This document shows, piece by piece, positions 7,237 to 45,018 of a DNA stretch of 64,000 nt. The stretch lies in assembly GCA_012797975.1 (NCBI GenBank), contig JAAZOD010000022.1:22797-86796 (forward strand), written 5' to 3'. Numbering within the stretch: position 1 is the first letter of the stretch; each line of letters begins with the position of its first letter. Under the pieces are notes generated by a model. That model did no database searches. It was not told the DNA's origin and was given only the letters and a program-made list of their open reading frames with translations. The translations under genes and the position numbers were made by a program. The DNA is from Pelolinea sp. GTDB taxonomy: Bacteria; Chloroflexota; Anaerolineae; Anaerolineales; Anaerolineaceae.

Positions 7237-7279
7237 CATTAATGACACGGTTTATAATCTTTCATGACAAGGAAAAAAC

Positions 7280-8827: not shown

Positions 8828-8841
8828 GGACCGTACGTATC

Positions 8842-10494: not shown

Positions 10495-10516
10495 TTTAAT
10501 AAAAAGAGGAGAAAAA

Positions 10517-11071
10517 ATGGGTGTCTTACCGGATTATAAAATACGAGAATATGCAAAAAAGCAGGCCATGATCGAACCTTTTGTGGATGGCCAGGTTCGG
10601 GATGGCAAGATTTCTTATGGACTTTCTTCTTACGGGTATGACATTCGTGTGGCGGATGAATTCAAGATCTTCACCAACGTCTATACCACGGTGGTGGATC
10701 CCAAGAATTTCGACCTGCGCTCCATGGTCGATTTTCAAGGGGAACTGTGCATCATTCCCCCCAATTCCTTTGCCCTGGCTCGCACGGTGGAATATTTTCA
10801 CATCCCGCGCGGTGTGATGACCATCTGCGTGGGCAAAAGCACTTATGCGCGCTGCGGGATCATTGTGAACGTGACCCCTTTTGAACCGGAATGGGAAGGG
10901 TACGCTACCTTGGAGATCTCCAATACCACACCTCTGCCGGCCAAGATCTACTCGAATGAGGGTATTGCCCAGGTGCTGTTTCTGGAAGGGGATGGAATTT
11001 GCGAAACCTCGTATGCCGATAAGAAAGGGAAATATCAGGCGCAGCAGAGCATCGTACTGCCAAAACTGTAA
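10517..11071 (+). CDS. dcd: dCTP deaminase
   Basis: [12 protein letters not shown]...SSYGYDIRV...[17 protein letters not shown]...[11 protein letters not shown] trimmed to the ATG at 10517, preceded by GAGGAG. Confidence 0.9.
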
Positions 11072-11089
11072 GGCGAATACAGCGGGCAG

Positions 11090-12181
11090 CTATTCATAGT
11101 ACTGCATGTGCATGGCTTTTCTGAGATCGTTCAACGTTTGATTGGCGATCTCGTTCGCTTTTAAATTCCCTTCGCGCAAAATGTTCCAGATCAGCGCCGT
11201 TTCGGAGCGATAATGATTTCTCCGCTCGCGGATGGGGCGGAAATATTCATTGACCGCTTCGGTGAGGTGCTTTTTGAGTCCCGCAGCCCCGCTGTTCCCG
11301 ATCTGGTCAGCCAGAATTTCCGGCTCGGTGCCGGTGCAAAAAGAGTAAAGTCGCAGCAAGTTAGCCACCTCCGGACGGTTGACGGGGTCATAATGGATGT
11401 GCATATCCGAATCGGTCTTGGCCTGCTTGATCAATTTCGCCGTTTCATCCTCGCTCATTTTCAAATAAATGGCATTGTGCAAACTTTTCCCCATTTTGCG
11501 TCCGTCGACCCCCAGCAGGATGGGTGCGCTCAGCAGCAGCTCCGGCTCGGGGAAGAAGCTTTCTCCCGCGAAATACAGATGGTTGATGCGGCGCGCGATG
11601 AGCCGGGTGAGCTCAATGTGCGGCAATTGATCTTTCCCACCGGGTACCACATTGCCCTTGCAATACAGGATATCGGCCGCTTGGTGGACGGGGTAGGTCA
11701 TCATCAATCCGCTCACCGATTTTGTTCCGGAGAGGGCGATCTCATCCTTCACGGTGGGATTGCGCTGCAGCTCTGCCATGCTGACCACGCTGAGAAAGGG
11801 GAGCATCAACTGGTTGAGGGAAGGGACCATGCTGTGGCAGAAAATGGTGCTTTTTTCGGGTTGAATGCCTACCGCCAGATAGTCGAGGATGATCTCGAAA
11901 ACGCTTTCCTTGAGCATCTCGGTGGAGGTTCGATCGGTGATGGCCTGGTAATCTGCCAGCACCAGAAAGAGCTCCACACCCCAGTTCTGCAGGGTCACCC
12001 TGCTTTTCAAAGAACCGAAGTAATGCCCGATGTGCAGGGCTCCGGTGGTGCGTTCTCCGGTCAGAATGCGAAATTTGGAGGGCTGTTCTTCCAGTTCCCT
12101 CCACAGCATGGGGCTTCTGGCGATGCACTCTTTTAAAGACTCGTTTTCGTTTCCAAACAACGGCATTTCATGGTTTTCCAT
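11090..12181 (-). CDS. trpS: tryptophan--tRNA ligase
   Basis: Class I HIGH motif (TGALHIGHY) and KMSKS-type loop (KMGKS). Its size and layout fit TrpRS better than TyrRS. Confidence 0.8.
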   Translation of the reverse strand: MENHEMPLFGNENESLKECIARSPMLWRELEEQPSKFRILTGERTTGALHIGHYFGSLKSRVTLQNWGVELFLVLADYQAITDRTSTEMLKESVFEIILDYLAVGIQPEKSTIFCHSMVPSLNQLMLPFLSVVSMAELQRNPTVKDEIALSGTKSVSGLMMTYPVHQAADILYCKGNVVPGGKDQLPHIELTRLIARRINHLYFAGESFFPEPELLLSAPILLGVDGRKMGKSLHNAIYLKMSEDETAKLIKQAKTDSDMHIHYDPVNRPEVANLLRLYSFCTGTEPEILADQIGNSGAAGLKKHLTEAVNEYFRPIRERRNHYRSETALIWNILREGNLKANEIANQTLNDLRKAMHMQYYE

Positions 12182-28704: not shown

Positions 28705-30807
28705 TTACTGAAGCGGCTGGACTTTTTCCAGCAGCAGCGCCTGAACGATCGACGGCAGAGCGTTCTTCACGATGCCCATCTGCCAGTTAGGCAGGAAGTT
28801 TTGCTTGATGGGGGTGGGCGGCGTCAATTCCAGAATGGGTTTTCCGCCGTTGTAGAGCATTGCGGCGTTCTCGATCAGTTGGGCATTGGCTTCATATTTT
28901 TGCAGCCCGCCGATCACGATCGCGTCGCGGCGTGGAGTGGAATAAGTGCTCACCGCACTGGCAGAGACCAGACTGAACTGCAGAGGGGCCGTGGTCGGGT
29001 AGCGCAGGGTCATGGTCTGGTTGCCCATCGTCCAGGAACGGCCTTTCTGCACCAGTTCCACCTGCAGCCAGTTCAAGTAGTCATTGAATAGAACATCCTG
29101 GTCTGCTCCGAAAACGGTCAGGCAGCGCGAGAGGATGGCGTTGCGTAGCCAATCGAGCCGCAGGATGTCATCGTTGGGACGGATGGCGTTCCACATGGCC
29201 TGCAGCACGGAATGGACCGGGGTTTGTTCTTTCTCCGCCCACGTTACCAGCGCGCCCAGCAGGGCATTGTCCACAACTTCGTAGCGGTAGCGCCCAAAAC
29301 CGTTCACTGCCAGATGCACCTCGAACTGTTCTTCCTTGCGCGTGTTCCGTTGGAACGAGGAATAGAGCGGGTTGAGATTCAGATATTCCAGGATGATCTC
29401 ATCATAGGTCTTGCGATGGGCGGTGAGCGACTGCCAGAAGCCGCGCACCCCTTCACTCTCGGTATCGGTGCCCACGCCGGCCCACATGGCTCCGGGCACT
29501 CCTTGCTTTCCCTGATTGGTTCGTACTGCCAGGAACTCGGCCCGTTTCTCGGGGGTGCCCATGGCCAGCAGTTCGCCGATCACATCCCCCTGCATGTCCT
29601 CCGGTTTGATCACCTTGCAGGCGGTATCGGGGAAGGTGCAGATCCAGGCGCGGCGCAGGCGTGGTAGCAGGGCGGCCGCATGCGGCAGCTTGGCGGCTTC
29701 CAGCAATGCTTCATTGCAGAAACCGCGTTTGACGAGCAGCACGAAGAACCACGCTTCGCTGGTCTCATTGTTCCCTGTGCGCTGCATCAGTTCATTATAT
29801 TTGGTGGTGGTGCTCTCTGGCTTGGCGCTCAGGCCTGCCAGACTGGAAAGGATGAACGGCTGCAGATAAGGCGGTGTGTTTTTGACCAGATTTTCGGAAA
29901 AAGTGGGGGTGAAGATGACCAGCCCCTTGTTCTCCAGTTCCGCGCCGCTATTCAGCACAACGTGCATGAGGTTGAAACGATCCAGCCACACCTGGTCGAG
30001 CCAGGCGGCTTTCGCCAGAGTTTCCACCATCTCCGCGATCAGCCGGGCAAATAATCCCTCGCGTTCTTTTTGAATATGAAAAGCCAGCAGGCGTGTGTGC
30101 AGGCGCAGTTGTTCGCTGAGCTTGCCGCTGTTGGCTGGAACGCTCAATTGCGCCAGATTGCTGCGGATTTTCTTGGCTATCCGTTCGATCAGTGCATCAT
30201 CCAGTTGGATGGCTTGTCCTTCATCTGCCAGTATTTCAAGGATCAGAGTTTCCATCTTTGCTTCCCCCAGGATGGGAAGGAGGAAAGTCCATTCGGCAGG
30301 TTCCAGTTTGGTCGCTTGGTTGAGACGTTTCAGTATATCGCCCTGCAATTTGGCCGAAAGATTCTTCATCAATGGATAAGCCACTTTGCGATCGAGCGGC
30401 AGCCAGGCATCCACCAGCGCTTTCCACACCGGTCCTTTGCCGAGCGGGTTGAAGCGTTTTTTCAAACGCGCTTCGCAATCCTGCAGCTTCGCTTTCTTTT
30501 GGTTCACATCCTCCAGCTTTTTGATCTCTTCGATCTCCGCCAGCATTTCTGCGGCGAAACCCTTCTTTTCGCTGGGAACGGATTCCTCGAAGCCGGTGCG
30601 CAGTTCGGCCAGTTCCGCCTGATTTTCCTGCGGGATGGAACGCAGCAGCGGCTGCAGCATTTGCCAGTATTTTTCCGCCCGTTCGGGGGCGAAGGTGCTG
30701 CAAAACTGGCAGAGCTTCAGCAGGAAGAATGCTTTGGGCTGGTCCAGCAGCGCATTTCCTTCCAGGGTGCTGTCGACAATGTTGAATACGTGGTTCTCTT
30801 CGCTCAT
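28705..30807 (-). CDS. hypothetical 700-aa cytoplasmic, predominantly helical protein (no domain recognised)
   Basis: Long uninterrupted ORF with coding-like composition and GGAGGATACC upstream of the ATG. Terminators on both sides suggest it is monocistronic. Confidence 0.6.
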   Translation of the reverse strand: MSEENHVFNIVDSTLEGNALLDQPKAFFLLKLCQFCSTFAPERAEKYWQMLQPLLRSIPQENQAELAELRTGFEESVPSEKKGFAAEMLAEIEEIKKLEDVNQKKAKLQDCEARLKKRFNPLGKGPVWKALVDAWLPLDRKVAYPLMKNLSAKLQGDILKRLNQATKLEPAEWTFLLPILGEAKMETLILEILADEGQAIQLDDALIERIAKKIRSNLAQLSVPANSGKLSEQLRLHTRLLAFHIQKEREGLFARLIAEMVETLAKAAWLDQVWLDRFNLMHVVLNSGAELENKGLVIFTPTFSENLVKNTPPYLQPFILSSLAGLSAKPESTTTKYNELMQRTGNNETSEAWFFVLLVKRGFCNEALLEAAKLPHAAALLPRLRRAWICTFPDTACKVIKPEDMQGDVIGELLAMGTPEKRAEFLAVRTNQGKQGVPGAMWAGVGTDTESEGVRGFWQSLTAHRKTYDEIILEYLNLNPLYSSFQRNTRKEEQFEVHLAVNGFGRYRYEVVDNALLGALVTWAEKEQTPVHSVLQAMWNAIRPNDDILRLDWLRNAILSRCLTVFGADQDVLFNDYLNWLQVELVQKGRSWTMGNQTMTLRYPTTAPLQFSLVSASAVSTYSTPRRDAIVIGGLQKYEANAQLIENAAMLYNGGKPILELTPPTPIKQNFLPNWQMGIVKNALPSIVQALLLEKVQPLQ

Positions 30808-32027: not shown

Positions 32028-32696
32028 ATGCTCTATATCATCTCAACCCCCATCGGCAACCTCGGCGATATGACCCTGCGCGGGCTGGAAACGCTCAGGC
32101 AGGTCGATTACGTGGTCAGCGAAGATACCCGCAAGACCGGCCTGCTGCTCAAGCATTTCGAGATCAGCAAACCGCAGATCTCCTTTCACGCGTTCAACGA
32201 ACAAAAGACCCTGCCGCGCTTGATGAACCTGCTGAAGGAAGGCAAACATATCGGGCTGGTGAGTGATGCCGGCACCCCTGCCATCTCCGATCCCGGTTTT
32301 TCGCTGGTGCGGGCGGCCATCGAGCACAATATCCCGCTTACCGCTGTTCCCGGTCCCACCGCGCTCATCATGGCGCTGGTGCTTTCAGGGCTGGCGCTGC
32401 ATTCCTTCACCTTCCGCGGTTTCCCGCCGCGCAAGAGCGCCGCGCGCCGGCGTTTCATGGAGGTGGATAAGGATTCACCACATACCCTGGTTTTCTACGA
32501 GAGCCCCTACCGCCTGCTGGAATTTCTGGAGGATGCTATCGCAGTGTATGGTGATCGCAAGGCGGCGCTGGCCAACGATCTCACCAAAAAGTTCGAAACA
32601 GTATTGCGCGGATCGCTTTCGGAAATAAAACAGCAGCTTTCCGAAGAAAAGCTGCTGGGTGAATACACCATTGTCATTGCCGGGGCTGATTCATAA
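32028..32696 (+). CDS. rsmI: 16S rRNA (cytidine1402-2'-O)-methyltransferase
   Basis: [22 protein letters not shown]...VVSEDTR...[12 protein letters not shown], the tetrapyrrole-methylase-fold RsmI signature. Confidence 0.9.
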
Positions 32697-33413
32697 CGGG
32701 TTGAAGCGCGTGTCGCGGTCGTAATAATCCTCGTTCTCCGCTTTCTTCAATCCGTTCACGATGCGGTAGGTGAAGGGCGTAAAGAGCGCCTCGACCGCCA
32801 CTTTGAAGATGTAATTGGTCAGCACCAAACTGGTGAAGATCTCCCACGGAAAGACCCCGAACAAGCTGGCGATGAGGGTGAAGATCAGCGAATCGACCCC
32901 TTCGCCCACCAACGTGCTGGTGATGGTGCGCAGCCACAGGAATTTTCCTTCCGTTTTTACCTTCATCACCGCCATGACCACCGAATTGCTGTATTCCCCC
33001 AGAAAATAAGCTACCAGACTGGCGATCACCAGTCCGCCGCTGCTCATGCCCCCCAGCACGGCATCATACGCGGCCTGTCCGGTGTACTGCTGCCAGGCCG
33101 CCTCGCCCGGCAGAACGCGCACCAGGCTCAGGGTGAGCGCGCACAACGCCATGGCGCCGAACCCGGTCCAGATCACGCGCCGCGATTTTTTGAATCCGTA
33201 CACTTCCACCAGCACATCCCCGAAGATGTAGCTGATCGGGAAGAGCAACGTGCCGCCGTCGAAGGCCATGCGCACCCCGCCGATCGAGAATCCCCAATCC
33301 ACGATCTTGGCGGATGAGGCGATATTGCTGGTGATCAGCACGGTCACAAAGAGCGCCATCACCAGGTCGAAAAAGCGGTAGCTGCGTTTCGGTTCACTTT
33401 TCTGTTGCATCAC
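32691..33413 (-). CDS. yhhQ: queuosine-precursor (7-deazapurine) transporter, YhhQ/VUT family
   Basis: [25 protein letters not shown] and [14 protein letters not shown] blocks of DUF165/YhhQ. Confidence 0.85.
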
Positions 33414-33478: not shown

Positions 33479-34234
33479 ATGCATCGTTTTTTTCTGCCTG
33501 CCGGGTGCATTGCCGGTGAAACCGTCACGTTTCCGGAGCCCATCGCCCACCAGATCCGCCATGTGCTGCGTTTAAAGGAAGGCATGCCGGTGCAGGTGCT
33601 GGATGGCGCGGGGACGCTACTGCAGGTGCGCCTGCAGGAAATTTCGGAGGAAGGTGTGCTTGGGCGGGTGATGGAGCGCAGCCGGCCGCAGGATGAGCCG
33701 GCGGTGAAGCTTGCGTTGTGCGTTTCGCTCACCCAGCGCGAGAAGTTCGAGTGGATACTCCAGAAAAATGTGGAGGTGGGCTCGGCCTGCGTGTTGCCCT
33801 TCATCTCACGCTATTCCCTGGCGCGGGAAAAGACGATCGAGGCCAAACGCCGCCAGCGCTGGGAAGATATCCTGCGCGAGGCTGCCGAACAGAGCGGGCG
33901 CATCCTGATCCCCACCCTGGGGGAAGTGTGCAACTTGCCGAAGCTGATCGCCTGCTGCGCGCAGGAGTACGACCTCTGCTTGGTCGCCTGGGAAGGGGAA
34001 CGCTCAACCACCCTGCAGAATGCACTGCAAACAGTGCAAAAGAAAGGGCGCGATGCCCATTCCATCGCCATCTTCATTGGCCCCGAGGGCGGTTTTGCCG
34101 CGCAGGAAATGGAAGTTTTCGAACAGGCAGGGGTGGTGCCGGTCTCGCTGGGCAAACGCATTTTGCGCATGGAAACTGCGGCCATTGTGGCGCCGGCGCT
34201 CATTTTATATGAATTGGGACAGATGGGGCTTTAA
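33479..34234 (+). CDS. rsmE: 16S rRNA (uracil1498-N3)-methyltransferase
   Basis: MHRFFLP...HVLRLKEG...QSGRILIPTL...IFIGPEGGF...LGKRILRMETA, typical of RsmE. I trimmed to the ATG at 33479. Confidence 0.85.
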   Translation: MHRFFLPAGCIAGETVTFPEPIAHQIRHVLRLKEGMPVQVLDGAGTLLQVRLQEISEEGVLGRVMERSRPQDEPAVKLALCVSLTQREKFEWILQKNVEVGSACVLPFISRYSLAREKTIEAKRRQRWEDILREAAEQSGRILIPTLGEVCNLPKLIACCAQEYDLCLVAWEGERSTTLQNALQTVQKKGRDAHSIAIFIGPEGGFAAQEMEVFEQAGVVPVSLGKRILRMETAAIVAPALILYELGQMGL

Positions 34235-35745
34235 TACAAACGCGTTGGCAGCAGATTCTTCAGGCGATCCTTGAGCGCCTTGGCACGTCCCAGCACTCTG
34301 CCGCTTTCATCTTTGACCAGCAGTGTTTCCCCCATCCAGTCCTTGCGGATGGAAATATCGAAAATGTCCTGTCTTCCCCAATAAGCTCGGCTCTGTTCTT
34401 CGTTCAAAACCACGCACCCTTGCTGGAATGAAATGCCAAAACGGGCTGCAAATTCATGGCTGATCTGGAATCCACCGGGAATGCGCTTGAAGGCGTTCAT
34501 CCCGTAGCTGGAGAAGGGCAGGCTGAAGAATTCACTGAAAAGCCGTTCCGGCGCCAGCAAAATGCCGTTTCCATTTTCCATCAGAAGGTCTTGCTGTTTT
34601 TGCAGCACGCTTTCCAGATCGAACCCGTACAGGTCCCGCATCCAGCCGCTCAGGGTTTGCTGATCTTTCGGAGAAAGCGGATTAGCCCGCTCTACCCTCT
34701 TCCCGGTCTGCGCCGGCTTGCCTCCCGTTTCGCTTGGGATGGAAGCCAGTTTGGTGAAACGCGCGCTGAAAAAGCCGGTCGTACCAAAAAGGTGCGGCCA
34801 CAGGCGTACCGCCCGCTGCATGGCTGGCGCAAAGCACTGGTTGCCGAACTGGTTCAGGGCGGGAGCGGGTTTCGGCAATCGGGCGGAACCGTCATCCAGC
34901 CGGATGCGGTCGCCGAATTCCTGCAGGGCGCGCTGCACCACCATTTCATCTTCCTCGGGTGAAAGTGTGCAGGTGGAATACACCACCTGCCCGCCGACCT
35001 TCACCGTTTGCAGGGCGCTGCGCAGCAGCAGGAACTGGCGGTTGCTCAAACTTTGTTGTTCCCCTGGGCTCACCGCGCGCAGCGGGTGCGAAGGGGTATC
35101 GTACAGATTCTGCATGCTACAGGGGGCGTCCAGCAGCACGATGTCGAAGGTTTCGGGAAGCTGGCTGCCGAAATACTCCCCGTGCAGGCAGGTGACTGCC
35201 TGGTTGATGGCGCCCCATTTGGCCAGCACCACGCGCAGGGCGGCGATGCGCCCGCTGCTGGCGTCGTTGGCGATCACCAGCCCACGGTCGGCGGTCTTGT
35301 CGATCAGATGGGTGGTCTTCCCGCCCGGCGATGCTGCCATATCCAGCACCAGCGGGGATGGTTGGCCGGAAAGATCGAAAAGCTCCACGGGCAGCATGGA
35401 CGCGCTTTCCTGAATGTAGTAATCTCCCAGCAGATGTTCGCTGGTCTTTGCGATGCTGCCGGCGGAAGCGTCGAGGTTCCATCCGCTGGGGCAGAAGGGT
35501 ACGGCAGAGAGCTGCCATCCGTAGCGTTGCTCCAGTTGATGGATGAAATCCTTCGGTTCATGCTTCAGCAGATTGATGCGGATGGCAGCCGGCAGTTCCT
35601 GATCCAGTGTTTCACATAATCGCTGGAAATCAGCGGCGCTCAACAGGGGGCGAAAATGTTCCAGCGCTGTGCTCACGGCGGAGGGAAGAGAAAGGAGTTC
35701 TGTCAAATCAGCCGGCTCCTTTCCGGATACAGAAGACGATCTCAT
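34231..35745 (-). CDS. RsmB/RsmF-family (NOL1/NOP2/Sun) RNA m5C methyltransferase, RsmF-like length
   Basis: LDMAASPGGKTTHL, IANDAS, LLDAPCS, VYSTCTLSPEEDE. The start is uncertain. Candidates are ATG 35745, or TTG 35706 with GGAG 9 nt upstream and 1 nt after the stop of the upstream gene. Confidence 0.8.
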   Translation of the reverse strand: MRSSSVSGKEPADLTELLSLPSAVSTALEHFRPLLSAADFQRLCETLDQELPAAIRINLLKHEPKDFIHQLEQRYGWQLSAVPFCPSGWNLDASAGSIAKTSEHLLGDYYIQESASMLPVELFDLSGQPSPLVLDMAASPGGKTTHLIDKTADRGLVIANDASSGRIAALRVVLAKWGAINQAVTCLHGEYFGSQLPETFDIVLLDAPCSMQNLYDTPSHPLRAVSPGEQQSLSNRQFLLLRSALQTVKVGGQVVYSTCTLSPEEDEMVVQRALQEFGDRIRLDDGSARLPKPAPALNQFGNQCFAPAMQRAVRLWPHLFGTTGFFSARFTKLASIPSETGGKPAQTGKRVERANPLSPKDQQTLSGWMRDLYGFDLESVLQKQQDLLMENGNGILLAPERLFSEFFSLPFSSYGMNAFKRIPGGFQISHEFAARFGISFQQGCVVLNEEQSRAYWGRQDIFDISIRKDWMGETLLVKDESGRVLGRAKALKDRLKNLLPTRLY

Positions 35746-36511
35746 CTTCAAATATGATCTCTTCCACAGGCCATGTTCTGCCCTGCAGGGCATCCTGCAC
35801 CAGATGGCGCATGCGTTCGCTCAGGTCGTGTGTTTTGCCGATATCACGCTTGGGCAGCGAGACCAGCAGGGTGGTCACCGGCAGCGCATCCCATAGAATG
35901 CGGTTGCTGCCTTTGCGGCGCTGATCCATGCGGTGCGCTTCCTTGAAGAAGAAAGCCGTATCCGCTTTTTGCGTGGGCGGTGATACCAGAATGTCGCGCT
36001 GTTCGGCGCGTGCGGCTTCGAAACCTGCCCTCCGGAAAAAGGCGTTCAACAGGTTCACCCGCGGTTGGTGGATGTCATAGGCCAGATAGGTGATGTTTTG
36101 ATCCAGCCCCATTTTGGGCAGGGCAAACGGGTTCAATCCGCAGGCCAGGTCCAGAATGCTCTGGGGGGTGCCGATACGTTGAAAGAGAGCGTTGTAAAAA
36201 TCGGTCAAATAGGGCAAGCGTTCGCGGGTGGAGGTGTGCGCGCTGAGCATGCGGTTGGCAAAATCCTGCAATTCCCTTTCATCTTGCATGAGTTCAAGCT
36301 CTTCCAGTGCTTTGTCATAGTCGGGGTCGCCCAGATAAAGGGCGGTGAGCTGATGTAGTTTCTGGCGCACACTTTCCTGCATGCTCTTTTCATCGCGGAA
36401 GCGCTGGCTTTCCTGTTCGATCAGATCACGGATCGTTTCAGCGGGCAGATGCAGATCGCGGTACTTGCGCGAACGCAGCACCTTCTGGATGAATTCCTCG
36501 TTGGATGACAT
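35708..36511 (-). CDS. divergent ArmA/Rmt (FmrO-family) 16S rRNA methyltransferase paralogue B
   Basis: KVLRSRKYRDL, KLHQL, HTSTRERLPYLTDFYNALF, SILDLACGLNP are conserved. The C-terminal blocks diverge (FFFKEAHRMDQ, VSLPKRDIGKTHD). I trimmed the track ORF (to 36916) to the ATG at 36511, which is 2 nt after the stop of paralogue A. Confidence 0.7.
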   Translation of the reverse strand: MSSNEEFIQKVLRSRKYRDLHLPAETIRDLIEQESQRFRDEKSMQESVRQKLHQLTALYLGDPDYDKALEELELMQDERELQDFANRMLSAHTSTRERLPYLTDFYNALFQRIGTPQSILDLACGLNPFALPKMGLDQNITYLAYDIHQPRVNLLNAFFRRAGFEAARAEQRDILVSPPTQKADTAFFFKEAHRMDQRRKGSNRILWDALPVTTLLVSLPKRDIGKTHDLSERMRHLVQDALQGRTWPVEEIIFEDEIVFCIRKGAG

Positions 36512-36513
36512 GG

Positions 36514-37326
36514 CTATTTCCTTTTCACCCGATAGACCAGCTCGCTGGCGAACAGGAATTTTTGGTGATCCCAGCCCAGTTCTGCCGTTAATCCTTCGAA
36601 TTGCTGGGAATAGTGGGCCAGCATGCCTTTCTCTTTCCCGCCGATGCTGTGCACCGGAAAACTGACCAGCAGCCAATCCGCAGAAATGCCGCTCAGAATG
36701 CGCCGGGCGCTGTCTTTGTCCGCCTGTTCCAGGCAGGGCAGGGTTTTCAACAGCAGTGCCACCTGAGCATGTTCCTGGGGAAGTTGGCGCAGCAGATTGC
36801 AGGTGCCGGCTTTGCCGCGGATGGCAAAATGGCCGAAAAAGCTTTGCAGAAAAACTGTCATGTCCTGAAAGATATCGCAGGCGCTGTAGCTCGCTCCTTT
36901 TTCCAGCGCCATCCAATCCAGCCCCAGTGGGTTGAATCCGCAGGCTAGATCGAGGATGGAGTTCACCGGCCGGATATCCTCGAACAGGGTGCGGTAAAAA
37001 TCAGCCAGGATGGGTAACCGTTCGCGGGTGGAGGAATGTTCTTGCATCAGCCGGCTGCAAAAAGCCCGGCTTTCGGCAGCGTGGATATCGGCAGGCAGGG
37101 TTTCCAGTTCTTGCATGTGGGCGGCGTACTGCGGCTGCTGGGGGAAATAAGCCCAGCCCACCTGATGCAGTTTGTTGGTGGTGGCTTTGACTGTCTCTTC
37201 GAGGGAAGCGCGCTTTTTGATTTCTGAGTTGGCGATGAAAGCCACCAGGTCGGGGTCGAGATGCTGGTACTTTTTTTTTGCCAGCACCTGCCGGATGACC
37301 TCGCCGACTGTGAAGGGGCCGCTCAT
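36514..37326 (-). CDS. ArmA/Rmt-type (FmrO-family) 16S rRNA (guanine1405-N7)-methyltransferase homologue, paralogue A
   Basis: It matches ArmA/RmtB block for block as I remember them: LAKKKYQHLDPDLV, NKLHQVGWAYF, HSSTRERLPILADFYRTLF, SILDLACGFNPLGL, LLLKTLPCLEQAD, VSFPVHSIGGKEKGM, ELVYRV. Its ATG overlaps the TGT stop (ATGA). Confidence 0.85.
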   Translation of the reverse strand: MSGPFTVGEVIRQVLAKKKYQHLDPDLVAFIANSEIKKRASLEETVKATTNKLHQVGWAYFPQQPQYAAHMQELETLPADIHAAESRAFCSRLMQEHSSTRERLPILADFYRTLFEDIRPVNSILDLACGFNPLGLDWMALEKGASYSACDIFQDMTVFLQSFFGHFAIRGKAGTCNLLRQLPQEHAQVALLLKTLPCLEQADKDSARRILSGISADWLLVSFPVHSIGGKEKGMLAHYSQQFEGLTAELGWDHQKFLFASELVYRVKRK

Positions 37327-38408
37327 GCCGCTTCTCCGCGTAACTGGCGGATGATGTGTGCCATGAAAGAGAGGTTGTGGATGGTCGCCAGACGCGCGAA
37401 CAGGGTTTCGTTGATCTGGTGCAGATGATGGATGTAACTCATGCTGTAGTGCTGGCAGGTGGGACAGGGGCAGGTGGGGTCGATGGGTTGTGTATCGCGC
37501 ATGTGCTTTTCGTCTTGCGCATAGATGTAGTCCAGCCAGTCCAGGGAGCGGGTGTTGAACTCTCCGCGCAGCCGGTACAGCCGGCCGTGACGTGCATCGC
37601 GGGTGGGCATGGCGCAGTCAAAAAGCCGGTAGCCAAACTGAAAGGTCCTCACCAGATTATAAGGATGCCCGATGCCCAGCGCGTGCATAGGGAATTGGGT
37701 GGGGATCAATTCGCGCGTGTAGCCCACCATCTCTTCCACCAGATTGCCATCTTTATCCAGCGGCCAGCCGCCATATCCATAACCGTCAAAACCGATCTCC
37801 AGCAGGGCGCTGGCGCAGGTTTCACGATGCTGGCGGGAACCGCCGCCCTGTACCACGGCAAACAGCTTGCGCTGGCGATCCGCATCGTTTTGTGTGTTTT
37901 CCATCAGACGCTGAAATTCCTGTTTGCAGCGGCTTGCCCAATGCACGGTGCGTTGCACCGATAGCACCTGTTCACTGTCCGCGTCGTCCACATGTGTGCA
38001 ATCATCCAGGCAGAACAACACATCCGCGCCCATCTTCCATTGGATCTGTATGCTTTTTTCAGGGGTGAGCGTGATTTTCTTTCCGTGAGCGGTATTTTTC
38101 AAATGGATGCCATCATCCGAGAAGCTACCAAAGCCGCTGTTCTGGCGGATGAGGGAGTACGCTTGAAAACCGCCCGAATCGGTGAAAATGGGACCCTGCC
38201 AGCCGCTGAAGGCATGCAAGCCGCCCAGCGCGCTGATCACAGTGGTACCGGGTTTTTGCATCAGGTGGTAGGAATTCATCATGACGGCCTGCACACCGCA
38301 AGCCGCCAGGTCCTGTGCGTCCAATCCGCGCACTTGCCCGAAAGTGGCATCGGGCAAAAAAGCGGGCAGGGGGATCACTCCGTGGGAGGTCGAAAAAAGC
38401 GTATCCAT
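37323..38408 (-). CDS. TGT-family (tRNA-guanine transglycosylase-like) enzyme with a non-canonical base-selectivity segment
   Basis: Conserved blocks: IFTDSGGFQ, LDDC, LFAVVQGG, LFDCAMPTRDARHG, and the zinc site CPCPTCQHYSMSYIHH. Divergent blocks: FLPDAT where bacterial Tgt has FMPVGT, and GYGGWPLDKDG where it has GGLAVGEP. Confidence 0.85.
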   Translation of the reverse strand: MDTLFSTSHGVIPLPAFLPDATFGQVRGLDAQDLAACGVQAVMMNSYHLMQKPGTTVISALGGLHAFSGWQGPIFTDSGGFQAYSLIRQNSGFGSFSDDGIHLKNTAHGKKITLTPEKSIQIQWKMGADVLFCLDDCTHVDDADSEQVLSVQRTVHWASRCKQEFQRLMENTQNDADRQRKLFAVVQGGGSRQHRETCASALLEIGFDGYGYGGWPLDKDGNLVEEMVGYTRELIPTQFPMHALGIGHPYNLVRTFQFGYRLFDCAMPTRDARHGRLYRLRGEFNTRSLDWLDYIYAQDEKHMRDTQPIDPTCPCPTCQHYSMSYIHHLHQINETLFARLATIHNLSFMAHIIRQLRGEAA

Positions 38409-38456: not shown

Positions 38457-39374
38457 TTAATGCAATACGCTCAATGCGTGCAGGGTTACCCATGTGTCCA
38501 CCGTATCCTGCCCGGCGGTAAAGGACCAGGTACGCTTGCGGGCTGGGCTGGCTCCCCGCCACATGCCGCTCAAGGAGCGTTTTCCGCGCAGCCAGTTCAG
38601 TGCCTGGAGGGCAGAGGGATGGTGAAGTGCGTCCAGTTCGTCCAGCACGCGCAGGGTGAAAAGGATATCCGTGCTGTAAAAGAGCGGAAAGTTCAGCGAG
38701 AACCAGCAGCGATGGATCTGTTCCTGATACGGGTAATCGGCCTTGAGCAGAGAATAGCGCTCCAGCAGGAATTCTAGACCATGCCGGATGGCATGCTCCA
38801 CCTGCGCAGAGCGTTTTTCAACCGGAATGGCAGCCAATCCCCACATCGCGCGGATCAAACCCCAGGCGCAGGGCAGTCCGTAATTCCAGTCGCAACGGGC
38901 ATCAACTTCGACCTCGCGCACCTGCAGGCAAATGGTCTCTTGAAGGATGGGGTCTTCCAGCGCGCCGCAATGGATTTGATAGCGGGCGAAGTTCCCCCAA
39001 AAGCAGATCAATCCCCTTTCGTCATTCTCGATCTGTTCATGCAGACTTTGCTGCATGCGTTTGCGCATATAGGCCGCCCCTTGCTGCATGGCTGGATGGT
39101 CGCCCGACAGGCCCAGTTCGGTCAATAATTGCATGCTCCAGTGCGTGGCTTTATATTTTGGTGTATAGTGGCTGCGTTCCCACACCCAGTACCCTTCGGG
39201 ATGCTGTTCTTTGAGGATGGAGCATACCGGTTCCTGTTCTGCCAGCAGAATTTGCTGTTGCAGAACCAGGGGATCGTCCGGTGATAATCCTTTCAGTTTT
39301 AATAAAGTGAACAGGCGGATCGAAGGTGTATCCGCCTGTTCCAATGTCTGGATCAATTCTTCACGAGTTTGCAT
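38457..39374 (-). CDS. hypothetical helical-repeat protein (possibly alpha/alpha-toroid, prenyltransferase-like)
   Basis: 305 aa starting at the ATG at 39374 (AAAGGGGAAAC upstream). Trp/Gly-rich helical repeats are present. The fold assignment is a guess. The track extension to 39806 overlaps the next gene and I rejected it. Confidence 0.5.
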   Translation of the reverse strand: MQTREELIQTLEQADTPSIRLFTLLKLKGLSPDDPLVLQQQILLAEQEPVCSILKEQHPEGYWVWERSHYTPKYKATHWSMQLLTELGLSGDHPAMQQGAAYMRKRMQQSLHEQIENDERGLICFWGNFARYQIHCGALEDPILQETICLQVREVEVDARCDWNYGLPCAWGLIRAMWGLAAIPVEKRSAQVEHAIRHGLEFLLERYSLLKADYPYQEQIHRCWFSLNFPLFYSTDILFTLRVLDELDALHHPSALQALNWLRGKRSLSGMWRGASPARKRTWSFTAGQDTVDTWVTLHALSVLH

Positions 39375-39403
39375 GTTTCCCCTTTTCTCGCTGCCACAAG
39401 CGC

Positions 39404-39907
39404 TTATTCTTTTTTCTTGGGTTTGATGAAAGCGCTGATCAATACGATTACGCCCAGGCCGATGATGAACAGCGGCCAGTATGCGCCAACCTGCCAGCCC
39501 AGCCCGTAGGTTCCGCCGAAGATGATAAATCCGGCTGCGCTGATGGCCATCAGAACCAACCCGCTGCTCTCGAATTTGGGCCCGCTGCGGTCGATCAGGC
39601 CGCTCAGCAGAATGCCCACCCCCACAAATCCGGGGATCAATGTCCAGGCATACGCCCAGGTATCCCAGGCGCCGGTCATCTCTTGATAATACAGAATGGC
39701 CCCGATGCCAGCAATGATGCAGCCGGGAATGGCTAACCCACCGGTTCTGGAGAGAAGAGCAGCCAGAAGGAAGATCGCGCCCACTCCGATGATCGAGAAT
39801 GGCCAATCCAGAAAGTTAAAGGTTTCTGGGAAAACGCGGGTGACCAAGAGGCACGCGCCGATGATGATGAGGATGATACCCCAGACCAGATCACTTCGAT
39901 TTTTCAT
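39404..39907 (-). CDS. small multi-pass membrane protein (DUF5668/LiaF-N-like)
   Basis: 167 aa with about 5 Gly-rich TM helices and a KPKKKE tail. First gene of the co-directional block. Confidence 0.6.
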   Translation of the reverse strand: MKNRSDLVWGIILIIIGACLLVTRVFPETFNFLDWPFSIIGVGAIFLLAALLSRTGGLAIPGCIIAGIGAILYYQEMTGAWDTWAYAWTLIPGFVGVGILLSGLIDRSGPKFESSGLVLMAISAAGFIIFGGTYGLGWQVGAYWPLFIIGLGVIVLISAFIKPKKKE

Positions 39908-39991: not shown

Positions 39992-41182
39992 TCACAATGC
40001 GGCTGTCAGTTCTTTGGCGAGCGCATGGATTTGCATGAGATCTTCTTGCGTGGCCTGTCCTTTGAAGTCAACCTTTCCTAGCAGTTCCCATTCCAGCACT
40101 TCACATTGCCTGTTCATGAAACGCATGGCTCCGCCGCCCCAGCCGTAACTGCCGATGTAGATGGCTTTTTTATGGGTCATGCGTTTTTTATCCGCCATTT
40201 CCAGCGTAAATTCCATGCTGGGGAAGAGTGCTCCTTCATAGGTCGGCGCACACACCACCACTCCGGCGCTGGTCCATAGGGCAGGCAGCACGTAGCTGAT
40301 GGGAGTTTGCGTCACGTCCGTGCTCTCGAATTCTATACCGTTTTCTAGCAACGCTTTTTCCACCGCGGGAAGTACTTTGTGAGTGTTGCCGTACATGGAA
40401 GCGTGCAGCACGCATACTTTCTTTGGATAGTTGCCGCCTGCGTATCCGGACCACTGCAGATAGAGCTCCAGAATGCGCGCGGGGTTGGCACGCCACACCA
40501 ATCCATGCGAAGGAGCCACCATTTTTACTGCCACACTGGATATCTTTTCAGCCGCTTTGAGCACTGGCTTGCTGAAAGCGCATACGATGTTGGAAAAGTA
40601 GCGCAGCGCTTCCCGCTCGAAGGGCTGCAGATCGGGTTGCTCATCATCGAAGATGCCGTGTTCCAGTTTTCCATACCCGCCAAAACCATCGCAGGAAAAG
40701 AGGATCCCGCTGCTTTCTTCATAGGTCATGATGGTCTCCGGCCAGTGCACCATGGGGGTGGAAAGGAAGCGCAGGGTATGGCTGCCCAGGCGGATGGTTT
40801 CATTATCTGCGACGGTTTGAAAGTGTTCGTTGATCCCGAAGAAGGATGCCAGCATATCGCGCGTTTTTTCGCTGCCCAAAATGGTGATTTGCGGGGCGAT
40901 CTGCAGCAATTCTCGGATTGCACCGGAGTGGTCGGGTTCCATGTGGTTTACCACCAGATAAGTGAGCTGGCGCGGATCGATGCAGGCCTTGATGTTTTCC
41001 ATCAGCAGTGCGCCGGTGCTGTCTTTGCACAGGTCGATCAGGGTGCTTTTTTCATCCTTGATCAAATAACTGTTGTATGAAATGCCCTCTTTTTCGATCG
41101 TCCACAGCCCTTCAAAGAGGCGAGTGGAGGTGTCATTCACACCGATCCAAAAGATGCCATCCGATAAAGCGATTGGTTTCAT
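39992..41182 (-). CDS. fprA: flavodiiron protein (FprA-type A-type flavoprotein)
   Basis: An N-terminal metallo-beta-lactamase-like domain (VNHMEPDHSGA) plus a C-terminal flavodoxin-like domain. AAGGAGAC SD. Confidence 0.9.
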   Translation of the reverse strand: MKPIALSDGIFWIGVNDTSTRLFEGLWTIEKEGISYNSYLIKDEKSTLIDLCKDSTGALLMENIKACIDPRQLTYLVVNHMEPDHSGAIRELLQIAPQITILGSEKTRDMLASFFGINEHFQTVADNETIRLGSHTLRFLSTPMVHWPETIMTYEESSGILFSCDGFGGYGKLEHGIFDDEQPDLQPFEREALRYFSNIVCAFSKPVLKAAEKISSVAVKMVAPSHGLVWRANPARILELYLQWSGYAGGNYPKKVCVLHASMYGNTHKVLPAVEKALLENGIEFESTDVTQTPISYVLPALWTSAGVVVCAPTYEGALFPSMEFTLEMADKKRMTHKKAIYIGSYGWGGGAMRFMNRQCEVLEWELLGKVDFKGQATQEDLMQIHALAKELTAAL

Positions 41183-41270: not shown

Positions 41271-41879
41271 CTAATGGCCGCCGCCCAGGAAATTGCTGAT
41301 CACGATCGAGATCAGCCCGGCTGTCAGGGTTTTTAATCCCATGACGATCCAGCTTTGCTTGGATATTTTTCCAAGGAACATGCCCAACCCGAACAGCACC
41401 AGCAGCGCAAAGCCGATGGAAACGTAATAGATGATGTGAATATCGCTGAACAGGTTGGCAAAGAAGAAGGGGATCAATACCACCAGCGCTGCCAGGAACG
41501 GTGATAAGCCGTCCACCAGCGCCACCGCCACGGCGGCGAACCGCGATGCTTTCTCGATTTTGCTGCCGTTCAGGTCGGTCAGGGTGCTGTGGCTGAGCTC
41601 ATCCATCTCGCGTTTCCGCTCTGCAGATTCGGTCAAAAATGAACCCCATAAGCCGGAGATGCCAATGGCTACCGAGGTCGTCAGTCCGGTGGTTACCACG
41701 ATCATGGCATCATCCACCCCGGCTGCATAATGCCCCATCAACACACCGATGATGGTCAACACGCCGTCGAATGCGTTCATGGCGAAATACCGTCGTGCGA
41801 TTTCGCCGATTTCTGCAATATCACTATATTCAGATATCCTCTCGATCAAACGCCTGAGAGGGTTGCTTTTCTTTTTCAT
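41271..41879 (-). CDS. VIT1/CCC1-family (vacuolar-iron-transporter-like) membrane protein
   Basis: NAFDGVLTIIGVLMG...GLTTSVAIGISGLWGSFL...EREMDE...VDGLSPFLAAL fits PF01988 as I remember it. Confidence 0.7.
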   Translation of the reverse strand: MKKKSNPLRRLIERISEYSDIAEIGEIARRYFAMNAFDGVLTIIGVLMGHYAAGVDDAMIVVTTGLTTSVAIGISGLWGSFLTESAERKREMDELSHSTLTDLNGSKIEKASRFAAVAVALVDGLSPFLAALVVLIPFFFANLFSDIHIIYYVSIGFALLVLFGLGMFLGKISKQSWIVMGLKTLTAGLISIVISNFLGGGH

Positions 41880-41897
41880 GATAGTTTATGCGGGGAT

Positions 41898-42188
41898 TTA
41901 ATCCTGAAGGGTTGCCGCATCGTCGATGATCATTTTGCCGGCAACAACTTCGTCAATGGAATGAATGGATCCACCCAGATCCCGGATCATGGCTGCGACG
42001 ACATCATAATCAAGATCATCACCTTCAATGGTGATCTTGGCATTTTCAACTTTATGGTCGATCTCGGCAATGCTGATATTGACCGCTGAAATGCCCTCTA
42101 ATACACTGATTTTTTTTGCAAGGTCCACAATACTTGGTTCGATCGGTTTCAGCACATCCAAAACCAATCTACGAATTTTTCCTATCAT
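41898..42188 (-). CDS. DUF211 family protein
   Basis: 96 aa. IRRLVLDVLKPIEPSIVDLAK...IEGDDLDYD is the DUF211 (COG1888) pattern. It lies 18 nt upstream of the VIT gene. Confidence 0.7.
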   Translation of the reverse strand: MIGKIRRLVLDVLKPIEPSIVDLAKKISVLEGISAVNISIAEIDHKVENAKITIEGDDLDYDVVAAMIRDLGGSIHSIDEVVAGKMIIDDAATLQD

Positions 42189-42279
42189 CTCTGTTTCTTA
42201 AAAAAGACTCCTTCCGATTTTTGAGAAATATCAACTGCCCAATTTATACCATACTTTGGAGGTCATTCCATATGTATAT

Positions 42280-43359
42280 CTATTTCTTATACAGTTCCTC
42301 AACCCAGGTTTTGTTCTTCCATAAAGCACAGGCGCCATCGCTCTCATCCAACCGATCACCGCTGTTGCGGATGACTTGCAGGTGAGGAGAACGCAGTGCC
42401 GAGAGCAGGCTGACTTCCTGCAGGTTGGCATCGGAGAAGGGTGAGAAGGGGCAGGGCTGCACCTCTCCCTGTGGATTGATGTGGATCAGCCCTTTTGCTC
42501 CTGCCAGACAGCCCCCCAATTCCATTTCCCCTCCCGGAAATGCCATGAATAAGGCCGGGAATTTCATGCGCAGTTCTTCCAGAATGGCCAGATGGCGCAT
42601 GACCTGTTGGGTTGTCAACGCCAGGGAACGGGTTTGCGGATCGATGGGCAGGTAATTGATGAAAAAGAACACCTTACAGCCCTTGTCCATCATATCGATC
42701 AGGTATTCTTCGTTGTTCACCAGCTCAAAGTTGCGGCTGGTCTGGGTGATGGAGGTGCCGAACAGCATCTTTTCTTGTTTCAATGCTGAAAAAACCTCCA
42801 CGGCACGTTCGTAAATTCCGCCACCGCGCCGCAGGTCCGTATCCTGCTGGTCGCCTTCAATGCTGATGACCGGCAGGATGTTGCCCTGCCGCTTGATGCG
42901 CTGAATGGCTGCCTCATCCAGCAGGGTGCCGTTGGTGAACAGCAGGAAGATGAGGTTCGGAAATTCCTGGATGGTATCCAGCAACCCCGGGCGCAGGAGG
43001 GGTTCTCCGCCTGCCAGCAGGATCACCGAAACACCCAGCTCTTTGGCTTGCTGGATGACCGCCCTGAATTGGGTAGCGGTAAGCTCCTTTTTACTATTCT
43101 GATGGAGGATCTTGGCATAACACCCTGCACAATCCAGGTTGCAGTCGTTGGTGACGCTGAAAATGATCATGGGTGGTATTTGCACACCCTGGCGCAGATA
43201 CTTCTTGCGTTTTCGTTCCGCCAGCCGGTAGGCAAAGTACAGACGGCCTGCCGAAGAAGCCAGGCGCGGATTGTTCAAACTGAAGGATACGATCTGCTTC
43301 AACCCCATTTCGAAGCTGATATTGAAGTATTGGGTGATATTGTCTATTTTGTGTGACAT
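42280..43359 (-). CDS. radical SAM protein with a partial SPASM-like C-terminus
   Basis: CNLDCAGCY (CxxxCxxC), LAGGEPLL, and C-terminal GGCLAG...INPQGEVQPCPF. Confidence 0.85.
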   Translation of the reverse strand: MSHKIDNITQYFNISFEMGLKQIVSFSLNNPRLASSAGRLYFAYRLAERKRKKYLRQGVQIPPMIIFSVTNDCNLDCAGCYAKILHQNSKKELTATQFRAVIQQAKELGVSVILLAGGEPLLRPGLLDTIQEFPNLIFLLFTNGTLLDEAAIQRIKRQGNILPVISIEGDQQDTDLRRGGGIYERAVEVFSALKQEKMLFGTSITQTSRNFELVNNEEYLIDMMDKGCKVFFFINYLPIDPQTRSLALTTQQVMRHLAILEELRMKFPALFMAFPGGEMELGGCLAGAKGLIHINPQGEVQPCPFSPFSDANLQEVSLLSALRSPHLQVIRNSGDRLDESDGACALWKNKTWVEELYKK

Positions 43360-44216: not shown

Positions 44217-44318
44217 AACAAAACGAAAAGGCAAACTCGGCGAAAGCCGGGGACGCAAAGCCATGGGTCTACCGGTGGAAACACCTACGACTGCCAGGTT
44301 GCCGAAAGTGGAATCATG
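44217..44318 (+). promoter_or_regulatory. c-di-GMP-I (GEMM-I) riboswitch aptamer
   Basis: AAAGGCAAAC-UCGGC-GAAA-GCCGG-GGACGCAAAGCC-AUGGGUCU...GGUG-GAAA-CACC...GACUGCCAGGUUGCCGAAAG. This reproduces the conserved GCAAAC / GNRA hairpin / GGACGCAAAGCC / ..GGUUxCCGA core of GEMM-I (compare Vc2 as remembered). Confidence 0.8.
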
Positions 44319-44325
44319 AGTTCCG

Positions 44326-44358
44326 GCAGCTGGCATTTTGCCAGCTGTTTTCGTTTTG
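44326..44358 (+). terminator. riboswitch expression-platform terminator
   Basis: CAGCTGGC (44327-44334) pairs with GCCAGCTG (44340-44347), then TTTTCGTTTT. The left arm CTGGCA can alternatively pair with TGCCAG (44292-44297) in the aptamer 3' part. Confidence 0.7.
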
Positions 44359-44388
44359 AAAACAAACGAAAGGAGACGATATACTCAA

Positions 44389-45018
44389 ATGAAAAGGATC
44401 ACAACGGTCGTCTTGGCAATTTTACTGTTGATCGGCTTCACCAAACCGGTGTTTGCAGAAGGGGAGCCGGAACCTACGCTGGAACCGACCGTGGAACCGG
44501 AGGAAGAACAGGAGAAATTGAATCCGGTTGTCCGGTGGATCGCAGATTTTTTCAAAGATCTCTTCCTGGTTGAAACACCACAGGAGCCGGTTGAAACCAC
44601 GACCCCCGAAACAACCCCTGAAACGGATGAAACGCCGGTGCCTACCGAGGAAGTGCCCACTCCGCAGCTTACGTTGAGTGTGGAAGAGCAAATTGCTGCC
44701 TATCATGAGGATGAGCTGGGTTTTGGCGTGCTGGTGAAACTCTTGAGCATCGCCGAAGCCGCCAAAGCGGAATGCACTGCAACCGGTGTTAATTGTGATG
44801 TGACCATTGATACGCTGGTTGAACAGTTCAAAGCCGGTGTGGGTATTGGTGACTTGGAGGCACTCTATGGGAAACCGGATGTCTCGGGTGTGGGCCAGGT
44901 CAAAGGTACGCCGGAGCCGGAACAGAATCAGAACAGAGTGCAAAACGAGAACAGGAACACCAATCAGAAAAATTTGCAGAACGAGCATAAAACGGAAAAT
45001 AAGAACAAGAATAAATAA
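44389..45018 (+). CDS. small secreted low-complexity protein (209 aa)
   Basis: AAGGAGA SD 12 nt upstream. Signal peptide MKRITTVVLAILLLIGFTKPVFA/EG, an E/P/T-rich region, a roughly 70-aa ordered core with 2 Cys, and an N/Q/K-rich tail. I rejected the track start 44338 because it lies inside the terminator. Confidence 0.6.
   Translation: MKRITTVVLAILLLIGFTKPVFAEGEPEPTLEPTVEPEEEQEKLNPVVRWIADFFKDLFLVETPQEPVETTTPETTPETDETPVPTEEVPTPQLTLSVEEQIAAYHEDELGFGVLVKLLSIAEAAKAECTATGVNCDVTIDTLVEQFKAGVGIGDLEALYGKPDVSGVGQVKGTPEPEQNQNRVQNENRNTNQKNLQNEHKTENKNKNK

Follow-up and report, generated by a model that had tools for sequence, protein, structure and literature searches.

A variant branch of tRNA-guanine transglycosylases paired with 16S rRNA methyltransferase genes in Chloroflexota and other phyla

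Introduction

Bacterial tRNA-guanine transglycosylase (Tgt) is among the best-studied RNA-modifying enzymes, and the queuosine precursor that an organism uses is commonly predicted from the residues of its base pocket, taken as a fixed signature. In the canonical enzyme, as known from crystallography, the amide NH of the 231/232 peptide turns towards the N7 of guanine, and Glu235 services the flip. Methyltransferases that form 7-methylguanosine at position 1405 of 16S rRNA (m7G1405) cause pan-aminoglycoside resistance in pathogens. In the E. coli TGT the amine of 7-aminomethyl-7-deazaguanine (preQ1) binds the carbonyl of Leu215/231, and Cys158 is the preQ1-selective residue of the eubacterial enzyme (PMC3074131). 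The queuine-salvaging TGTs are marked by a GG[LS][AS]G signature (PMC11570991) and by a valine that replaces Cys158 (PMC3074131).

Here we analyze a window of 64,000 nucleotides from Pelolinea sp. (Chloroflexota, Anaerolineae; contig JAAZOD010000022.1 of assembly GCA_012797975.1), in which the gene at 37323-38408 on the minus strand encodes a variant tRNA-guanine transglycosylase of 361 aa. We use the name TGT* for the variant clade around this protein, give window coordinates throughout, and number residues as in Z. mobilis TGT unless they are stated to be TGT*’s own. TGT* keeps the fold and catalytic set of the bacterial enzyme, carries a conserved set of replacements in the base pocket, and is encoded, across phyla, next to genes for 16S rRNA methyltransferases of the FmrO and RsmI families. 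We put at roughly an even chance that its function is nonetheless the ordinary one, the insertion of preQ1 at tRNA G34.

Results

TGT* is a TGT-fold protein in a clade apart from canonical Tgt

The product of 37323-38408 matches the Pfam TGT family (PF01702) over its whole length (319 bits, residues 5-357) and just passes the NCBIfam equivalog model for Tgt, TIGR00430 (317.2 bits; cut-off 306.75). Its closest solved structures are those of the E. coli and Z. mobilis TGTs (E about 1e-70, 33-40% identity), and an AlphaFold2 model built on 123 relatives, with a predicted local distance difference test score (pLDDT) of 93, superposes on RNA-bound Z. mobilis TGT (1q2r) with a template-modeling (TM) score of 0.88 and a root-mean-square deviation of 1.8 Å. 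A previous sequence-only reading of this stretch had held that the protein retains the catalytic and zinc features of the family, that two pocket segments are replaced, that the C-terminus is shortened by about 20-25 aa, and that the stop codon overlaps the start of a methyltransferase gene in an ATGA; on each of these counts our alignments agree with it, with the correction that the gene lies on the minus strand. Every motif it quoted is present, with TDSGGFQ at residues 76-82, LDDC at 134-137 and LFDCAMPTRDARHG at 262-275 of the protein, and the set C313-x-C315-x-x-C318...H344 aligns with the zinc ligands C318/C320/C323/H349. Residue-by-residue alignment confirms the change of FMPVGT to FLPDAT and of G-G-L-A-V-G-E to G-G-W-P-L-D-K. 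Relative to the E. coli and Z. mobilis enzymes the C-terminus is some 20-24 aa shorter, the alignment stopping 23-28 residues before their end and 3-4 before its own, and the N-terminus is 13-25 aa shorter. At the junction, GCG GCA TGA GCG, the TGA stop and the ATG of the next gene overlap by four bases.

A protein search returned thousands of relatives, of which the best 120, 55-99% identical to TGT*, come from Anaerolineae, Caldilineaceae, Ktedonobacterales and one cyanobacterium (PCC 7367) and have in common the signature LPDAT, GGWPLD, LGxGHP and PTRDARxGRLY, as in the window protein. We then searched 50%-identity representatives exhaustively and built a neighbor-joining tree of 134 of them, in which the motif-bearing sequences make up a single group of 37, a split recovered in 15 of 20 bootstrap replicates, with both the E. 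coli and the Z. mobilis TGT falling outside it. The clade spans Chloroflexota, Armatimonadota, the one cyanobacterium and other phyla, and its members score 260-320 bits against the Pfam TGT model, compared with 450-510 bits for canonical proteins. Judged by sequence, TGT* is a separate, monophyletic and large branch of the TGT family that has not been described previously.

The base pocket combines retained catalytic residues with fixed replacements

Aligned to the Z. mobilis and E. coli enzymes, TGT* keeps Asp102, Asp156, Cys158, Gln203, Gly229/230, Asp280, Arg286 and Arg289. Five of these, D77, D135, Q187, G214 and D264 in its own numbering (equivalent to Asp102, Asp156, Gln203, Gly230 and Asp280), are invariant in 123 clade sequences, and Cys158 (C137) is conserved in at least 90% of the clade. 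Also retained are the RNA-contacting Arg286 and Arg289 and the homodimer hot spot (W326Y, Y330, H333, K52R-E339).

Set into this framework are the replacements V45D and G46A in the first segment and L231W, A232P, V233L, G234D and E235K in the second. Chance does not account for their pattern: among the 123 relatives W215 and P216 (own numbering) never vary, and L217 and D218 reach 97-98% conservation. Taken together, the Leu231/Ala232 switch, Glu235, Val233, Tyr258, Met260 and Val45 become W, P, K, L, H, L and D, and at all of these positions but 235 the replacing residue is fixed among clade members and does not occur in canonical sequences. Glu235 is lost: the window protein has a lysine there, the position is variable in the clade, and Asp234 is conserved. 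Comparing the 123 clade members with 63 canonical representatives, we find 24 positions with a residue that occurs in at least 90% of the clade and in no more than 5% of the sequences outside it. A proline at 232 would be compatible with a pocket that is held in the preQ1-binding state.

TGT* is coupled to FmrO and RsmI genes across phyla

The coupling of TGT* to FmrO is the strongest result of this work; it holds across phyla, in both directions of search, and extends to gene fusions. In the window the gene that overlaps the TGT* stop, FmrO_A (36514-37326, minus strand), encodes a 270-aa homolog of the Sgm/Rmt-like 16S rRNA m7G1405-type methyltransferases (Pfam FmrO, 153.6 bits). A TGT* profile recovered 80 genome loci, which cover classes of Chloroflexota, the Chthonomonadaceae, Zixibacteria, Latescibacteria and others, and in 75 of them an FmrO gene directly follows TGT*, often overlapping it. 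In the reverse direction an FmrO_A profile recovered 80 metagenome loci, a sample biased towards FmrO genes similar to the profile, and TGT* lies directly upstream of FmrO in 70 of the 72 that leave upstream room. RsmI directly precedes TGT* in about half of the 80 genome loci, all RsmI-like partners of TGT* exceed the RsmI equivalog cut-off, and YhhQ is found in the same cluster in 15 genome loci.

Many Anaerolineae repeat the order of the window (TGT*, FmrO_A, FmrO_B, RsmF, RsmE, YhhQ, RsmI). In the cyanobacterium PCC 7367 it is RsmI, TGT*, FmrO, RlmH and a second FmrO, and in the acidobacterial metagenome-assembled genome GCA_018269055.1 (locus L170, positions 8001-11633 of a 633-kb contig) it is TGT*, FmrO, RsmI and FmrO. 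Chloroflexus has a bare TGT*-FmrO bicistron amid unrelated genes. TGT* is moreover joined to each of its two partners in single open reading frames (ORFs), as TGT*-FmrO in L080/P0122, P0121, P0123 and P0240 and as RsmI-TGT* in P0251. Besides RsmI and FmrO no gene family recurs near TGT* in the genome loci, in a survey that did not include probes for queA and yajC, and a literature search found no paper that connects TGT with FmrO or RsmI.

Several further arrangements accompany this pattern. The acidobacterial module is flanked by transposase-like genes (UPF0236, DDE_3, HTH_29), which suggests horizontal transfer of the whole module. Several Anaerolineae clusters (L081, L073, L079, L087, L043 and L037) contain two RsmI-family genes, at 7243-7971 and 14486-15190 in L081; in such clusters a divergent copy (TIGR00096 178 bits, above the cut-off) stands directly upstream of TGT* and a standard copy at the far end. 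Two canonical TGTs show other architectures: P0339 is continued by an MnmC-like Methyltransf_30 domain in a fusion, and in P0313 a DUF559 endonuclease-like domain interrupts the central part of the TGT domain.

Queuosine genes in the lineages that carry TGT*

Per-taxon counts were taken from Table S1 of Quaiyum et al. 2024 (PMC11570991), where TGT is counted by IPR004803. They list 210 TGT, 248 QueA, 208 QueG, 18 QueC and 6 QueE in Anaerolineae, 33 TGT, 45 QueA and 36 QueG in Caldilineae, 39 TGT, 50 QueA and 30 QueG in Ktedonobacteria, 4 TGT, 7 QueA and 4 QueG in Herpetosiphonales, and 4 TGT, 7 QueA and 6 QueG in Chthonomonadia, which have the full de novo gene set (PMC11570991). The few QueC and QueE genes of Anaerolineae therefore point to precursor salvage. 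Chloroflexales have 23 TGT vs. 2 QueA and 1 QueG, and almost none of QueA, QueG, QueH, QueC, QueE and QueF (PMC11570991).

The TGT/QueA ratio of the TGT*-bearing taxa is 0.6-0.85, similar to the 0.79-0.95 of single-copy phyla in the same table; this is below the expectation for a canonical tgt coexisting with a partly counted TGT*, and two TGT per QueA are never reached. The simplest reading is that these lineages have one TGT per genome, namely TGT*, which must therefore supply the preQ1-tRNA on which QueA acts. TGT* is most likely the only tRNA-guanine transglycosylase of the organism analyzed here as well. When a canonical tgt was sought with a profile built from those canonical sequences that are closest to TGT*, the matches came from Patescibacteria only.

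The gene cluster in the window

The second FmrO gene, FmrO_B (35708-36511, minus strand; 267 aa; Pfam FmrO 140 bits), starts two bases after FmrO_A and is the more divergent of the two, which are 32% identical. FmrO_A aligns with Sgm (3lcu), the resistance enzyme of a gentamicin producer, over its full length (150 bits, residues 7-268), the motifs HxSTRERLP, LDLACGxNPL and LLLKTLPCLE being conserved between them. FmrO_B keeps the S-adenosylmethionine motif and has FFFKEAHRMDQ in place of the LLLKTLPCLE segment; its target may differ from G1405. Both are covered by the Pfam FmrO model along its full length, and both stay under the cut-off of 250 bits of the Rmt model NF000466, with 213 bits for FmrO_A and 181 bits for FmrO_B. 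In Anaerolineae FmrO_B is nearly always accompanied by an RsmF-like gene, which in the window is predicted to encode an RsmF/YebU-like 16S rRNA 5-methylcytidine (C1407-type) methyltransferase (34231-35745, minus strand; Pfam Methyltr_RsmB-F and RsmF_N); its match to NF008898, 256 bits, is below the cut-off, and its start is uncertain (35745 or 35706).

Convergent with this operon lies an RsmE-family 16S rRNA 3-methyluridine-1498 methyltransferase gene (33479-34234, plus strand; Pfam Methyltrans_RNA; TIGR00046 147.8 bits vs. 41). It is followed by the YhhQ/QPTR queuosine-precursor transporter gene at 32691-33413 on the minus strand (Pfam Vut_1 157 bits; TIGR00697, ‘queuosine precursor transporter’, 110.5 vs. 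50.95), the importer already named by the sequence-only reading, and by the gene for RsmI, the 16S rRNA C1402 2'-O-methyltransferase (32028-32696, plus strand; TIGR00096 229.5 bits vs. a cut-off of 167.9). Within 31.5-40.5 kb there is no preQ1 riboswitch, nor any Rfam match at all.

Directly upstream of TGT*, and possibly on the same transcript, is a gene for a 305-aa protein without a Pfam or NCBIfam match (38457-39374, minus strand). Together with a LiaF-TM-like membrane protein gene it occupies 38457-39907 (minus strand), and the order LiaF-like gene, 305-aa-type gene, TGT* recurs in L012, L090, L091, L109 and L125. Farther upstream, an ODP/flavodiiron-like protein (39992-41182) adjoins a group at 41271-43359 (minus strand) made up of a radical SAM/SPASM protein, a DUF211 protein and a VIT1 iron-transporter homolog, a group that does not recur near TGT* elsewhere. 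A c-di-GMP-I riboswitch (RF01051, 88 bits) at 44220-44306 (plus strand) directly precedes an ORF (44338-45018) whose product is Pro/Thr/Glu-rich with an N-terminal hydrophobic segment. On the other side of the cluster, a 700-aa ORF without a recorded Pfam hit (28705-30807, minus strand) is flanked by the genes for a PNP_UDP_1 nucleoside phosphorylase and for lipoyl synthase.

Discussion

In light of these results we propose a model in which TGT*, as a zinc-containing TIM-barrel homodimer, would bind the anticodon loop of tRNA-Asp, -Asn, -His and -Tyr, where its own Asp264 (Asp280 in Z. mobilis) would attack C1' of G34, the guanine would leave, and preQ1, imported by the clustered YhhQ transporter, would be inserted in its place; QueA and QueG, encoded elsewhere, would complete queuosine. 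The replaced segment would then be a different solution for the same base: Pro232 would remove the amide NH and thereby fix the 231/232 peptide with the carbonyl of 231 facing the pocket, the preQ1-binding state, so that Glu235 would be unnecessary and no longer conserved. The gene itself is part of an ancient operon whose products, RsmI, TGT* and FmrO, modify RNA of the decoding site, and to which the Anaerolineae version adds a second FmrO and RsmF. We infer preQ1 and tRNA G34 as substrates because TGT* preserves the fold of the bacterial enzyme along with its catalytic set (D102, D156, Q203, G229/230, D280 and the zinc site), because Cys158, which tunes eubacterial TGT to preQ1, is retained together with Arg286/Arg289 and the dimer hot spot, because YhhQ clusters with the TGT* gene, and because the queuine signature GG[LS][AS]G is not present.

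It is important to note that a number of observations weigh against an ordinary tRNA function. Of the 123 clade members only 31 reach the Tgt equivalog cut-off, as tested with the E-value equivalent to that of TIGR00430. Eight of the 24 clade-specific positions are 76-100% fixed in canonical Tgt as well (V45D, I201V, L231W, A/S232P, V233L, G234D, Y258H and M260L), and most of the eight (45, 231-234 and 260) line the pocket for the base and for ribose 34; such a set of co-ordinated pocket changes exceeds the expectation for an unchanged substrate. Human TGT keeps V45, G234, Y258 and M260 although it uses queuine. The near-obligate pairing with FmrO in both directions of search and the fusions, three TGT*-FmrO clusters and one RsmI-TGT*, are hard to explain without a common substrate. 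The methyltransferases to which TGT* is fused are of two kinds, both specific for the 30S subunit, and the module seems to move between phyla as a unit. Chloroflexales retain TGT*-FmrO as an isolated bicistron although queuosine genes are nearly absent from them. As for TGT* being the sole tgt, class-level IPR004803 counts may miss some TGT*, and the absence of a second tgt, of queA and of queG applies to 82 kb of the source contig.

These observations invite the alternative that the substrate of TGT*, exclusively or besides tRNA, is the small ribosomal subunit. It would work with RsmI (2'-O-methylcytidine 1402) and FmrO (m7G1405) on the top of helix 44 and replace a decoding-site guanine, possibly G1405 after its N7-methylation, with a 7-deazaguanine, and it would be a tRNA enzyme not exclusively or not at all; we regard such a role as rather unlikely. 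The order RsmI, TGT*, FmrO is kept in Chloroflexota classes, Armatimonadota, a cyanobacterium, Acidobacteria, Zixibacteria and Latescibacteria, TGT* stands directly upstream in 70 of 72 FmrO loci, both kinds of single-ORF fusion exist, and all other enzymes of the cluster are predicted to act on helix 44 or 45 of 16S rRNA. However, the tgt-yajC-secDF operon demonstrates conserved adjacency without a common substrate. The canonical TGT fused to an MnmC-like wobble-base methyltransferase domain suggests that enzymes with the same substrate can fuse in this family, but fusions are rare among thousands of unfused TGT*-FmrO pairs, and a small indel or an error of assembly is enough to join two genes with a four-base overlap. 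The retention of the pair in Chloroflexus without a queuosine pathway and the co-ordinated remodeling of the pocket speak for an rRNA target, whereas the apparently single TGT of the QueA/QueG lineages must at least also serve tRNA, neither the arginines that contact RNA nor the dimer interface has changed, the E. coli 16S decoding site is not known to have a U-G-U loop of the kind read by Tgt, and our literature search found no report of 7-deazaguanine in rRNA.

Where tgt is present on its own, if not more widely, TGT* might instead still act on tRNA G34 and insert another base, such as queuine or a different salvaged 7-deazaguanine. The Chloroflexales, with their TGT and almost no QueA/G/H/C/E/F, show the pattern that has been used to predict direct salvage (PMC11570991), the changed part of the pocket is the side that faces the 7-substituent, and the two new acidic residues Asp45 and Asp234, along with His258, could accommodate a side chain of greater size or basicity. 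We nevertheless judge this quite improbable: the GGWPLD pocket is identical in lineages with and without QueA/QueG, the queuine signature and the Cys158Val change are both missing, and Trp231 and Leu233 are bulkier, not smaller, than the Leu and Val they replace. A coupling of exchange to methylation, in which FmrO makes m7G and TGT* binds the cationic base and either swaps in a 7-deazaguanine or, as an eraser, restores G, would account for the strict pairing with an m7G-type methyltransferase and for Pro232, which eliminates the only main-chain NH able to hydrogen-bond N7, while the invariant Trp and the new Asp may be likened to the m7G pockets of cap-binding proteins and alkylpurine glycosylases. 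This proposal, purely inferential and without experimental precedent, is very improbable in our estimate, as G needs no activation in canonical TGT and the link to RsmI and the co-occurrence with QueA/QueG are left unexplained.

On balance we favor the ordinary tRNA-G34/preQ1 function for TGT*. The sequence-only reading was thus borne out in part: TGT* does stand apart from ordinary bacterial Tgt, in a clade of its own, and its link to methyltransferase genes is real, as synteny in both directions and the fusions attest. Its suggestion of a noncanonical base or nucleic-acid target is not supported by the analyses made here, given the retention of Cys158, of Arg286/Arg289 and of the residues of the dimer hot spot; the ratio of about one TGT to each QueA/QueG fits TGT* as the sole tgt of organisms that finish queuosine, an outcome that the sequence-only reading itself had listed among those that would refute it.

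The TGT* branch, apparently the only Tgt of several large phyla, departs from the pocket signature at eight positions, so that thousands of environmental genomes escape classification by the rules GGLAVGE for preQ1 and GG[LS][AS]G for queuine. Its coupling to FmrO suggests that m7G1405-type methylation is native and chromosomal in Chloroflexota and allied lineages, which makes these genes a possible reservoir or origin of aminoglycoside resistance genes, and points to a possible functional link between wobble-base and decoding-site modification. Were the rRNA target true, TGT* would be the first rRNA-guanine transglycosylase and its product the first base-exchange modification of ribosomal RNA, and the pool of queuosine precursors would be newly linked to the site where aminoglycosides bind.

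Comparison with known systems

The FmrO genes of these loci are akin to those of the Sgm/Kgm/Rmt/ArmA m7G1405 methyltransferases, which FmrO_A resembles over its full length, conserved motifs included. They differ in being chromosomal, outside aminoglycoside clusters and resistance plasmids, in scoring below the Rmt cut-off, and in lying nearly always downstream of TGT*; their m7G1405-type activity is predicted from sequence.

With the archaeal TgtA and the DNA-modifying DpdA, TGT* shares the superfamily and the covalent base-exchange chemistry. An archaeosine TGT was rejected on a TIGR00432 score of 80.7 bits vs. a cut-off of 350 and on the lack of C-terminal PUA or extra domains, and a DpdA-like role in defense or DNA modification was rejected as there is no PADLOC hit and the neighbors are rRNA methyltransferases, with no dpd or restriction-type genes. 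The queuine-salvaging TGTs (Chlamydia trachomatis type, eukaryotic QTRT1) are of the same family, are likewise associated with YhhQ-family transporters, and occur in ‘tgt only’ organisms, as the Chloroflexales appear to be; a pocket of their type was rejected for TGT*, which unlike them has GGWPLD and retains Cys158.

The nearest relative remains bacterial Tgt (E. coli, Z. mobilis; TIGR00430, PF01702), with which TGT* shares the fold, its 33-40% identity over the whole length, the catalytic and base-reading residues, Cys158, Arg286/289, the zinc site and the dimer hot spot, and from which it is set apart by eight replaced positions, no conserved Glu235, a shorter C-terminus and the RsmI/FmrO partners. 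TGT* is best filed as an enzyme that would act as bacterial Tgt does but lacks the pocket signature that helps to define Tgt, and that has entered a new, conserved genomic partnership.

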